From a virus (lineage: Duplodnaviria; Heunggongvirae; Uroviricota; Caudoviricetes), in the IMG/VR virus record IMGVR_UViG_2875713109_000006: a stretch of 5,364 nucleotides of DNA, one strand, 5' to 3'. Of this stretch, positions 2,573 to 5,364 are shown piece by piece (within the stretch, counting starts at the first letter, position 1; each line of letters begins with the position of its first letter). Both the position numbers and the translations under genes were made by a program. The notes beneath the pieces were generated by a model that saw nothing but the letters and a program-made list of their open reading frames with translations, had not been told where the DNA came from and searched no databases.

Positions 2573-3076
2573 TCACATCAGGCCGGTGGCGTTGGTTGTG
2601 ACCAGATCCACCGCAGCGGCCAAAACCGGCGCAGAGTGAATACGGCTTTCAACGGTATAAGCCAGCACGGATAAGCTACGGATTGCATCTCGGGCACGAT
2701 CCAGAATTTGAGTACGGCGGGCGGCGGTCATATGACCAGCTGATACGGCTTCCCCAGCAATCGCGCCCACACTGGCTGTGGCGCTCAGTGCACACAGTTG
2801 CATGTTGCCTTCTGTTGCATTGTTCACCGGTACGGATGGAAGGCAGTTAATCTGCCCCAGCATCCCATCCAGTAAACGCGCATCTTCGGTGTAATCCGTG
2901 ATAGCCAAAAGTTCATCACAGGTCAGGCGGTGCGGTTGCGCTGGGTTCAGTTTATTACGCAGGATCTGTGGCCTCATACCAACGGCAGCGGCCACATCTT
3001 CAAGATTGTGCTCAATTGCAAATGCTCGGCAAGCCGCATCAAAGTGCGCATGTTTAGAGGTCTGGTAATCAAACAT
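2573..3076 (-). CDS. cII: CII-like transcriptional activator (167 aa), phage 186 CII family
   Basis: N-terminus MFDYQTSKHAHFDAACRAFA and the internal LRNKLNP-QPH segment match my recollection of phage 186 CII, which is of similar length. Strong RBS GGGAGAGG 6 nt upstream of the ATG. Located directly downstream of the Apl-like gene, as in 186. Confidence 0.75.
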   Translation of the reverse strand: MFDYQTSKHAHFDAACRAFAIEHNLEDVAAAVGMRPQILRNKLNPAQPHRLTCDELLAITDYTEDARLLDGMLGQINCLPSVPVNNATEGNMQLCALSATASVGAIAGEAVSAGHMTAARRTQILDRARDAIRSLSVLAYTVESRIHSAPVLAAAVDLVTTNATGLM

Positions 3077-3106
3077 TGTTTGCCTCTCCCTAATCCGTAG
3101 GATGGA

Positions 3107-3328
3107 TTACGCTTTAAGCGAAATGTCACATTCGCTTAAAGCCTGAATAGTGAGCGCGGCCATGTTGACTTCGACCAGGCCTTTCTTCTGCTTACCCTTC
3201 GGCTTAATAGGTAATTTCCCGTATTCGATCAGGTTCCTGGCGGTTTCTTTGTTGGTACCAGTACGGCGGCAATACTCGTCTAAAGGCAGGTATGGCTCTG
3301 GGATGATGATTGTAATGTTCGGACGCAT
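3107..3328 (-). CDS. apl: Apl/Cox-like small HTH protein (excisionase / lytic-side repressor), 73 aa
   Basis: First gene of the leftward operon, divergent from the repressor gene. ATG at 3328..3326 is preceded by GGAG at 8 nt spacing. The N-terminus MRPNITIIIPEPYLPLDEYCRRTGTNKETARNLIEYGKLPI aligns in register with my recollection of the P2 Cox N-terminus. The ORF track extends it to a GTG at 3388 (93 aa); the true start is unresolved. Confidence 0.65.
   Translation of the reverse strand: MRPNITIIIPEPYLPLDEYCRRTGTNKETARNLIEYGKLPIKPKGKQKKGLVEVNMAALTIQALSECDISLKA
3111..3142. promoter_or_regulatory. Perfect 12-bp inverted repeat GCTTTAAGCGAA / 8-bp spacer / TTCGCTTAAAGC inside the last 11 codons of apl
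   Basis: Read directly: gctttaagcgaa-atgtcaca-ttcgcttaaagc. It encodes ALSECDISLKA on the - strand and is not followed by a T-tract on either strand, so it is not a terminator. It lies about 280 bp from the switch. Confidence 0.4.
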
Positions 3329-3447
3329 GAGGCAAACTCCATAAGTTAACCTGTACGGCAATACAGGGCTGTAACTGTCAATATTCACTTAAACCTACAA
3401 AGCGGAGTTTAAACTCACTCCGCGCAAGATTTCAAGGTAAAACTTTC
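3329..3447. promoter_or_regulatory. Divergent apl-cI intergenic region: presumed lysis/lysogeny switch with promoters and operators
   Basis: Contains (i) dyad CCTGTA-N6-TACAGG at 3350..3367; (ii) a perfect 12-bp palindrome GAGTTTAAACTC at 3405..3416 nested in GCGGAGT-N8-ACTCCGC (3402..3423); (iii) a candidate - strand promoter TTGAAA (3435..3430), 16-bp spacer, TTTAAA (3413..3408); (iv) a perfect TTGACA on the - strand (3381..3376) with no matching -10. Promoter assignments are by eye and uncertain. Confidence 0.5.
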
Positions 3448-4026
3448 GTGAATCTACAAATTGAGTTTTCTCATGGCGGAGCTGAGGTACTAGATAGAGT
3501 TATCCAAGCGTATGGATTCAACACAAAACTAGCCCTAGCCGAACATCTTGATATAGCAAGCAGCAGTCTGGCTAACCGGTATAAGAGGGATTTTTTTCCA
3601 GCTGATATCGTTGTTAGATGTATGGCTGAAACAGGAGCTACTCTGGAATGGCTTGCGACTGGACAAGGTAGAAAGTTTAACGATGACGAATTAGACATCA
3701 TGAAATTGCCACGCAAGAAGATTGTGGACGGAAAACTCTATGAGTCTGGTTTCCTAATGCTCGATAAGGTTACTTTTTTACCTGGCAAACCTTTACCGCA
3801 GAATCCTATCTGTGTGATTGATAACACAATGCAATACATTGTTGATCAACACTTTACTGAAGTTTATGACGATGTTTGGCTTGTCGAAGTTGAAGGTAAA
3901 ACCAGCGTTAGAACACTAACACGCATCCCTGTGGGAAAAGTTAGAGTAAGCGGCGTAGGTATGGCTTTTGACTGCGGTATTGACGATATAAAAATCATCG
4001 GCCGCATTGTTCTGACGATTGAATGA
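3448..4026 (+). CDS. cI: CI-type immunity repressor (192 aa), phage 186 CI family
   Basis: Length and N-terminal region (VLDRVIQAYGF...LDIASSSLANRY) match my recollection of 186 CI (192 aa). N-terminal HTH-like segment followed by a C-terminal domain. GTG start at 3448 with AAGGT about 10 nt upstream; there is no in-frame ATG near the N-terminus. Directly upstream of and co-oriented with int. Confidence 0.75.
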   Translation: MNLQIEFSHGGAEVLDRVIQAYGFNTKLALAEHLDIASSSLANRYKRDFFPADIVVRCMAETGATLEWLATGQGRKFNDDELDIMKLPRKKIVDGKLYESGFLMLDKVTFLPGKPLPQNPICVIDNTMQYIVDQHFTEVYDDVWLVEVEGKTSVRTLTRIPVGKVRVSGVGMAFDCGIDDIKIIGRIVLTIE

Positions 4027-5235: not shown

Positions 5236-5364
5236 ATGAATGAGTTCAAGAGGTGTATGCGCGTGTTTAGTCATTCTCCCTTTAAAGTACGGTTAATGCT
5301 GCTCTCTATGTTGTGCGATATGGTCAACAACAAACCGCAGCAAGATAAACCTTCCGATAAATAG
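5236..5364 (+). CDS. Small ORF (42 aa: MNEFKRCMRVFSHSPFKVRLMLLSMLCDMVNNKPQQDKPSDK), function unknown
   Basis: ATG at 5236 is preceded by a consensus AGGAGG (5226..5231) at 4 nt spacing. The TAG stop is the last three bases of the window. No motif recognised; it may be a host gene at the prophage junction or a phage moron. Confidence 0.4.
   Translation: MNEFKRCMRVFSHSPFKVRLMLLSMLCDMVNNKPQQDKPSDK

Follow-up and report, generated by a model that had tools for sequence, protein, structure and literature searches.

Locus and prophage context

The window analyzed here is the whole of a 5,364-nucleotide stretch of tailed-phage DNA (IMG/VR record IMGVR_UViG_2875713109_000006), and the element under study is a 12-bp inverted repeat in the 3' end of a Cox/Apl-like gene, immediately upstream of cII. 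The window showed 100% identity to a stretch of Escherichia coli PSS-07 (NZ_AP027673.1) and is a decaying remnant of a 186-like (P2-family) prophage in E. coli. In PSS-07 the remnant spans ~8.5 kb (L002 27300-36100) at a site between mntR and mntS. The late genes are missing, and the genes left are int, cI, the cox/apl-like gene, cII, fil, three small open reading frames (ORFs) and a 3'-5' exonuclease gene, beyond which lie a DUF3850 fragment and then DprA, hypothetical and DUF6680 cargo. Both the gene order and the convergent pR/pL switch are of the 186 type, CI is 41% identical to 186 CI, and both CI and CII have the matching Pfam domains.

An earlier annotation made from the letters alone (the sequence-only reading) had named the first gene of the pR operon apl. 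Its position is indeed equivalent to that of Apl in 186. The name itself fared less well: no BLASTP similarity was detected between the 73-aa product and 186 Apl, Pfam and NCBIfam searches with it gave no match, and the product matched instead PHROG 575, 'Cox-like excisionase and repressor' (E=1.7e-27). We keep apl below as a short name for this gene. A mosaic boundary lies within it, the final ~18 codons moving with cII and the remainder with the switch.

A perfect inverted repeat at the end of the Cox/Apl-like gene

A repeat search recovered a perfect inverted repeat with 12/12 complementary arms and an 8-nt spacer, as had been described, and it was the longest among the close-range inverted repeats of the window. 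It covers the last 11 codons of apl, Ala63-Ala73 (ALSECDISLKA). On the sense strand, the repeat end is followed by the stop codon after 1 nt, by the cII Shine-Dalgarno sequence after 17 nt and by the cII AUG (3076) after 30 nt. Each arm is itself a 4+1+4 palindrome (GCTT.AAGC), in agreement with the earlier description of the arms as near-palindromic, and the motif TTTAAG[CT]GAAT occurs only three times in the window, once in each arm and once at 3383-3393, a short way downstream of pR. No further copies of the arms or of the dyad were found beyond the apl-cII junction, either in the window or in the complete relative ESSI2_ev015 (30.6 kb). The repeat centre (3126.5) lies 286 bp from the -10 palindrome of pR (3402-3423, centre ~3412), close to the distance of about 280 bp from the switch that had been given.

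The claim that such a repeat is unlikely to arise by chance inside a coding region was also borne out, and neither chance nor the amino acid sequence explains it. A perfect 12-bp repeat with a 3-20 nt spacer was reached in 3 of 300 dinucleotide-preserving shuffles of the window (~1%). When the last 16 codons were resampled with local codon usage and the peptide fixed, the probability of an inverted repeat of at least 12 bp was 1.5e-4 and that of at least 9 bp was 1.6e-3, and whole-gene codon resampling produced a 12-bp repeat in 0 of 3000 trials. The predicted hairpin of the sense RNA had a free energy of about -16 kcal/mol, with pair probabilities of 0.87-1.0 in a 111-nt context and a z score of -2.8.

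Base pairing is conserved among relatives

The comparison took in ~200 related phages, and relatives were collected in three sets: five loci from other genera found via CII, 80 IMG/VR loci found via the Apl-like protein, and 73 further loci found via the divergent Apl of phage ESSI2_ev015. A third viral scan, with a divergent Apl, returned mostly the same contigs. Pairing was analyzed in 46 and then in 109 distinct sequences of the clade in which Ser65 is encoded by AGY, with permutation tests on 63 thinned sequences, and the clusters in the covariation counts were defined by 10% flank divergence.

These alignments point to selection that maintains base pairing, most clearly on the apl-sense strand. 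Standard pairs filled ~88% of the cells (for the 109 sequences, 88.8% sense and 86.9% antisense), compared with 27-45% when the partner was slid by 1-3 columns, and the observed pairing or covariation score was reached by 0 of 500 column shuffles. The third positions of Ser65 and Ser70 showed the combinations C/G in 73 of the 109 sequences, T/G in 9, T/A in 18 and C/A in none; those of Leu64 and Leu71 were A/T in 73, G/T in 28, G/C in 2 and A/C in none. Counted by clusters, T/A occurred in four and C/A in none, with T at Ser65 in only ~24% of the clusters. The permutation P values, which are optimistic because the sequences are related, were 5e-5 for pair 9, 0.011 for pair 6 and 0.013 for pair 3, and the loop-closing pair gave no signal. 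All three states of the serine pair are seen within one small separate clade, as AGC+TCG (L160), AGT+TCG (L158/159) and AGT+TCA (L166). Stem position 3 varies as T:A (in the window), G:C, A:T and C:G.

The two arms change in different ways. Third positions of the right arm change by transitions that retain G·U pairing on the sense strand. Those of the left arm (Ile69 T, Ser70 G, Leu71 T) carry 0.9-1.2 bits, compared with 0.0-0.3 at four-fold sites upstream; with Ala73 included, the values are about 1 bit vs ~0.1 upstream. In most of 70 thinned relatives, the minimum-free-energy fold of the sense strand keeps 7 or more of the 12 pairs. The loop is variable (UGYNNNRU), with D, N, R, H, S or E at residue 68. 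Such a pattern, with steps from C:G through U·G to U:A and never C·A, is what a base-paired helix shows, as opposed to a sequence fixed by protein recognition. What the relatives conserve is the pairing, with covarying third codon positions and a free loop.

The repeat belongs to a module that is independent of CI

The core TTAAGCGAA-N8-TTCGCTTAA was identical in prophages of Erwinia, Enterobacter, Buttiauxella and Kosakonia, whose pR regions are unrelated to that of the window. Across IMG/VR, the identical core helix was found beside at least 12 distinct CI recognition helices, and the CI recognition helix of the window was also seen with a different repeat sequence. ESSI2_ev015, with an Apl ~55% identical and a different operator (TCGAT-TAA-ATCGA, three copies), has a perfect 12/12 repeat of its own, GCGTTAAGCGAA/TTCGCTTAACGC. 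The element was independent of the cII type as well as of the CI type. These comparisons indicate that the last ~18 apl codons, the spacer, pE and cII form one module that recombines independently of cI, and that the repeat is part of this module. The hairpin is not universal, being missing in clades with Ser65 encoded by TCN, despite a conserved peptide, and not present in the 186 and L003 families of the relatives compared.

The predicted start of the establishment transcript

The positions of features in phage 186 were taken from GenBank U32222 and from PMC6593788. In U32222, FR (ATTCAC-TTTAT-GTGAAT) lies at 23404-23420 and starts on the last base of the apl stop codon, the CII site (ATGTTTG-N13-CAAACAT) occupies 23435..23462 at the cII start, and pE is annotated as complement(23400..23462), the feature end at 23400 being equal to the centre of the -38 half-site plus 38. 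The CII half-sites are centred at -38 and -58 relative to pE (PMC6593788). By this geometry, the pE +1 of 186 is 23400, which is the second base of the final apl codon; FR therefore spans -20 to -4, over the -10 sequence TAAAGT.

On the basis of homology with the site annotated in 186, a CII-binding site was predicted in the window, and the window and 186 share an apl-cII spacer of 30 nt. Every relative has a TAnnnT hexamer 21 nt from the CII site, with TAAAGT of 186 at an equal offset, and three bases of the hexamer in the window, A3099 (1.67 bits), T3103 (1.11 bits) and T3098 (0.97 bits), are the most conserved intergenic bases. By analogy with 186, the pE +1 of the window would be G3111, which is the first base of the repeat and the middle base of the last Ala codon, and the repeat would then occupy +1 to +32. 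With this predicted start, the same dyad would also form a 5'-terminal hairpin on the establishment transcript.

A proposed stem-loop in the apl-cII mRNA

Several comparisons of the two strands favoured the apl-sense RNA. The inner 7 bp were intact in 30 of the 63 thinned sequences by Watson-Crick pairing alone, in 42 when G·U pairs of the sense strand were allowed and in 31 when those of the antisense strand were allowed. Among the 109 sequences, 4.6% of the inner cells were mismatched on the sense strand vs 9.6% on the antisense strand. RNAalifold kept the helix on the apl-sense strand only (-5.46 vs -0.12 kcal/mol for the antisense strand), and single-step variants tolerated by one strand only were found in 20 clusters for sense and 5 for antisense. 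An mRNA hairpin just upstream of the cII ribosome-binding site, which the sequence-only reading had offered as its second choice, is the better supported of its two proposals.

From these patterns, we tentatively regard the repeat as a stem-loop in the pR apl-cII mRNA that acts post-transcriptionally, a reading to which we would give somewhat less than an even chance. The sense strand is that of the early lytic pR transcript, in which the hairpin takes up 32 nt at the end of the apl ORF. Ribosomes finishing apl would open the hairpin, and it would re-form afterwards. It could then be a barrier or a processing determinant at the apl-cII junction that lets the apl and cII portions of the mRNA have different fates, either as a protective 3' end for apl or, after cleavage in the AU-rich spacer, as a structured 5' end for cII. 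Such uncoupling might help to set the Apl:CII ratio, on which the choice between lysis and lysogeny depends. The supposed action of the helix on mRNA fate at this junction is the weakest part of the account.

A more direct role, in which the hairpin modulates cII translation, had also been suggested, and it found no computed support: disruption of the hairpin in silico left the predicted occlusion of the cII start unchanged. An intrinsic terminator was rejected, because the stem is followed by GUAAUCC (sense) or CUGAAUA (antisense) and not by a U-tract, and no terminator-like site was called. A 12-bp stem is also too short for a typical RNase III site. Rfam contained no family for the hairpin, its sole match in the window lying elsewhere and being a chance match (E=0.64). 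The missing U-tract, the short stem, the lack of an Rfam match and the unaffected cII occlusion together led us to prefer a barrier in decay or processing to a switch acting directly on translation.

Several observations weigh against the sense-mRNA stem-loop. The helix lies inside a translated ORF and would be melted by ribosomes, and the in silico disruption provided no computed link to cII translation; the stem length and the Rfam result count on the same side. Phage 186 itself has no such hairpin. The independent compensatory events are few, in ~3-4 lineages, and the loop-closing pair reverses the strand asymmetry, with A·C in 5 clusters vs G·U in 3. The stop-proximal arm (TTTCGCTT) is conserved even where the other arm is non-complementary (L152-154, L161-175), and the third base (G) of Ala73, just beyond the helix, is also constrained. 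Part of the strand asymmetry could therefore reflect a separate constraint, on the pE start region or on a DNA site. Furthermore, the helix begins at the predicted pE +1; this would matter for a protective hairpin at the 5' end and would otherwise be coincidental. As antisense RNA the helix is untranslated, and the first 92 nt of that RNA had a z score of -5.3, whereas the 5' end of 186 pE RNA is unstructured. Since the strand asymmetry is confounded by the conservation of one arm alone, we rank the sense-mRNA stem-loop first and a 5' hairpin on the pE transcript second.

A possible 5'-terminal hairpin on the pE transcript

The selected product might instead be the antisense RNA, that is, a 5'-terminal stem-loop of the CII-activated pE transcript (cI, int) that shields the 5' end from RppH and RNase E and prolongs the life of the transcript. 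Stabilization of E. coli mRNAs by 5'-terminal stem-loops is an established principle, as in the ompA 5' untranslated region. The leader of the pE transcript is ~340 nt long ahead of cI, and a hairpin on this strand would persist because the region is untranslated there. The first 92 nt of the pE RNA were predicted to fold at -33.1 kcal/mol, with 2 or 0 unpaired 5' nucleotides, and the promoter-proximal arm is the better conserved of the two. The CII geometry of 186 (PMC6593788) and the conserved CII site put the predicted +1 on the first base of the repeat, with the -10 TAnnnT conserved at a matching distance. A second strong structure was predicted in the pE RNA right after the hairpin (window 3145-3200, + strand), and it contributes to the z score over the 92 nt.

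However, synonymous transitions in the distal arm give antisense A·C mismatches in 34 of the 109 sequences at pair 6 and in 18 of the 109 at pair 9, and RNAalifold did not find an antisense consensus helix. In large lineages, the L066 group among them, the antisense hairpin has an energy of only -4.7 to -6 kcal/mol. In many relatives, N72 is replaced by H or Q, with loss of the outer pairs and at least 5 unpaired 5' nucleotides. A comparable structure was not found at the 5' end of 186 pE RNA (z=-0.5), and the transcription start site used here was placed by homology. On balance, we consider this role rather unlikely.

A possible flanking operator for CI

The sequence-only reading had preferred a CI site of the FL/FR type that assists repression by DNA looping. 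In 186, FL and FR lie ~300 bp from pR and loop to it on a CI 14-mer wheel, with two helical turns per dimer (PMC3675496), and CI repression of pE has been attributed to FR (PMC7708051). The repeat of the window could likewise be or contain an operator equivalent to FR, where CI bound at +1 to +32 or at -4 to +13 would repress pE and could loop over ~290 bp to pR. The distance was rightly called comparable (286 bp here vs ~370 bp for FR and ~306 bp for FL). FR is found at the same gene junction, 16 bp off in aligned coordinates, overlaps pE and is a 6+5+6 dyad, and the arms of the repeat are 20 bp apart centre to centre, or two helical turns. The GCGAA in the arms is a generic half-site type of the repressor family, one transition away from GTGAA of 186 and from GTGAAT/ATTCAC flanking pR in the window. 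In addition, the geometry of FL/FR is found in the 17-bp dyad at 3107-3123 that overlaps the repeat, and this dyad is conserved past the hairpin clade. In the X-type immunity group, no sequence outside pR comes closer than this dyad (10/12) to the operator half-site of the group itself, and L171 likewise shows 10/12.

In spite of these parallels, a CI operator at the repeat is improbable. The identical sequence accompanies 12 or more CI recognition helices as well as unrelated pR operators. Covariation of the arms takes in A:T, G:C, T:A and C:G pairs, which one would not expect from a fixed protein specificity. The half-sites of the large repeat are everted (GCGAA-N8-TTCGC), while every operator seen in the family has the order TTC...GAA with 3- or 5-bp spacing; those derived for other immunity groups are TTCGTA-AAA-TACGAA, TTCTCG-AAA-CGCGAA, TCGAT-TAA-ATCGA and TTAGAT-NNN-ATCTAA (6+3+6 or 6+5+6). 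Only the 17-bp dyad has an operator-like order and spacing of half-sites. An FL-like partner dyad was not found in cI, and eight phages with similar CI had no conserved run of at least 11 nt in cI. The best match of the repeat region to a candidate half-site of the window's own group, AGTGAA, was 9/12, which is at chance level for a 5.4-kb window; this test is weak, since only candidate operators are available for this immunity group (GGAGT-N8-ACTCC and GTAGGT-TTA-AGTGAA). Finally, in some relatives a dyad TTCGTA-AGG-TGCGAA and the hairpin core coexist as separate elements near pE, and this dyad is likewise independent of CI type.

Less likely readings: a repeat without selected function, and a kissing pair

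Alternatively, the 12-bp repeat may have no selected function, the conserved peptide (ALSEC.ISL.A), a constrained stretch by the pE start (TTTCGCTT..GCGTAA) and shared descent or recombination together giving 7-9 bp, which N72K (AAC to AAA) in the window happens to complete to 12/12. The perfect T:A version is indeed a rare allele, found in the window and in 1 of 86 loci, and about one relative in two has a mismatch at pair 3. Third positions of the left arm are no better conserved than usual two-fold sites, the window is a decaying remnant, and the clades and families without the hairpin are in line with such a by-product. On the other hand, at least 9 bp are expected with a probability of only 1.6e-3 given the peptide. 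Ser70 is TCA solely on AGT backgrounds (4-5 of 4-5 clusters, against a background of ~24%) and Leu71 is CTC solely with CTG. Leu71 is CTT in 64 of 69 sequences, while the remaining Leu codons are near saturation, and the perfect 12/12 repeat recurs with three different position-3 pairs (14 of the 63 thinned sequences). We therefore find a mere by-product hard to credit.

Least probable is a sense/antisense kissing module, in which the loop of the pE-RNA hairpin, exactly complementary to that of the apl-end hairpin of the pR mRNA, would nucleate a duplex of the convergent transcripts and have the apl-cII mRNA cleaved or silenced once CII fires pE; if true, it would give the 186-type switch an RNA-level commitment and negative feedback on top of the known transcriptional interference.

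Neighbouring dyads and structures

The coordinates of the repeat and of the surrounding features are collected in Table 1.

Table 1. Positions of genes, regulatory elements and dyads in the window
Feature	Position	Strand	Remarks
Left arm GCTTTAAGCGAA	3111..3122	+	3' hairpin arm in apl-sense (pR) mRNA; 5' arm in pE RNA, from the predicted +1
Spacer/loop	3123..3130		8 nt; AATGTCAC on +, UGUGACAU in sense RNA
Right arm TTCGCTTAAAGC	3131..3142	+	5' arm of the sense-mRNA hairpin; codons Ala63-Glu66
17-bp dyad TTACGC-TTTAA-GCGAAA	3107..3123		6+5+6 geometry as in 186 FL/FR; overlaps the stop codon and the stop-proximal arm
Small dyad TAATCC-N7-GGATTA	3091..3109		Spacer GTAGGAT; -20..-2 of predicted pE; apl stop codon inside; second hairpin (HP2) in sense RNA
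Predicted pE -10 TAGGAT	3098..3103	+	Predicted pE start G3111 (+/-1-2)
cII Shine-Dalgarno GGGAGAGG	3083-3090
Predicted CII-binding site ATGTTTG-N13-TAAACAT	3050..3076		cII start; homology with the annotated 186 site
pR region	3383..3423		-10 TAAACT 3411-3406; palindromes GAGTTTAAACTC (3405-3416) and GCGGAGT..ACTCCGC (3402-3423); arm-like motif TTTAAGTGAAT (3383-3393)
Cox/Apl-like gene	3107..3328	-	73 aa; ATG at 3328, TAA 3109-3107; first gene of pR operon; PHROG 575
cII	2573..3076	-	167 aa; Pfam Phage_CP76; 44% identical to 186 CII
cI	3448-4026	+	GTG start
int	4019/4028-5068	+
mntS	5236-5364
fil and further early genes		-

The small dyad at 3091-3109 formed a predicted 6-bp hairpin in the sense RNA (P ~0.8-0.9) and brackets the -10 sequence TAGGAT, and its outer TAAT/ATTA bases are conserved in relatives. 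This dyad, and not the 12-bp repeat, is the positional equivalent of 186 FR. The 17-bp dyad at 3107-3123 is conserved even in clades without the other hairpin arm. Both are better candidates for FR than the 12-bp repeat.

A long-range helix was also predicted in the pR mRNA, between apl codons 53-59 (AGUCAACAUGGCCGCGCUC, 3152-3170) and 3067-3090 (P 0.6-0.98). It covers the cII AUG, the first cII codons and the Shine-Dalgarno sequence, and encloses the main hairpin and HP2. It was predicted in most of 57 relatives (mean 0.62, vs 0.16 with a shuffled upstream segment), and no co-evolution signal was found for it in these 57. As modelled, this helix could couple the translation of cII to that of apl.

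In relatives with the 'ATGTAC' cII module (L069, L111-L116, L123-L130, L139, L140), the dyad TTCGTA-AGG-TGCGAA separates the CII site from the pE -10. The RNA form of this dyad would place the cII Shine-Dalgarno sequence (AAGG) in the loop of a 7-bp hairpin right before the AUG. We considered it as an immunity-matched FR, because it matches the pR operator of L069 at 11 of 12 positions, and rejected it: it also occurs with at least six other operator types, and thus this dyad, too, travels with the cII module. Another dyad at an apl-cII junction was seen in an Escherichia sp. prophage with another Apl type (L011, ~2436-2470), where a 12-bp perfect palindrome, ATAGACGTCTAT, and a T-run directly follow the apl stop codon.

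Around pR of the window, two perfect half-sites of the 186 type lie 60 bp apart, both on the minus strand: ATTCAC at 3448-3453, overlapping the GTG start of cI, and GTGAAT at 3383-3388. TTTGTAG direct repeats stand ahead of both, and putative Cox/Apl operator repeats (TATTGAC/TATTGCC) lie at ~3350-3385. In ESSI2_ev015 (L102, 26620-27260), the three pR operators are spaced 28 and 33 bp, and its cI gene (600 bp) contains the half-site ATCGAA 5 times vs ~0.3 expected; these may be weak wrapping or FL-like sites.

Comparison with known systems and significance

The repeat shares several properties with FR and FL of 186: it has dyad symmetry, is found where the first pR gene ends, upstream of cII, lies by or over the predicted CII-dependent pE, and is ~290-370 bp from pR. 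The half-sites are similar as well, GCGAA in the window and GTGAA in 186 FR/FL. FR, however, is a 17-bp 6+5+6 dyad at -20 to -4, past the stop codon, whereas the repeat is a 12+8+12 structure at +1 to +32 inside the ORF. The repeat is also everted, constant across immunity types and made of covarying pairs, and has no FL partner, unlike FR and FL.

As an RNA, the element resembles three other kinds of structure. On the pE strand it would be similar to 5' stabilizer hairpins of the ompA type, with an untranslated helix from the predicted +1, 0-2 unpaired nucleotides and about -15.5 kcal/mol; it departs from them in that pairing on this strand is poorly conserved in relatives, and the start site is a predicted one. 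On the sense strand it resembles the malE-malF repetitive extragenic palindromic (REP) sequence and the processing hairpins of phage early operons, as a stable structure with a conserved stem and a variable loop between cistrons needed in different amounts. Unlike them, it lies wholly in the upstream ORF, ends 1 nt before the stop codon and is a single 12-bp stem, and with no U-tract it is not an attenuator. Lastly, as with lambda OOP RNA and RNase III, CopA/CopT and RNA I/RNA II, convergent transcription would yield fully complementary RNAs beside cII, with complementary loops. In contrast to those systems, 186-like phages are not known to use RNA-RNA control, and what has been measured between pR and pE is transcriptional interference alone (PMC6593788).

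As a conserved stem-loop in the mRNA of a phage regulatory operon, the element is of an ordinary and familiar kind; what adds some curiosity is that it coincides exactly with the predicted pE start. The switch of 186 serves as a quantitative model, with pR, pL, pE, CI, Apl and CII all measured and modelled, so far at the level of transcription and proteolysis only. With a conserved RNA structure at the apl-cII/pE junction, these models would gain a post-transcriptional parameter, either the Apl:CII ratio or how long the establishment transcript lives. In addition, the behaviour of the apl 3' end, pE and cII as one immunity-independent module is relevant wherever position is used to infer flanking operators in related prophages.

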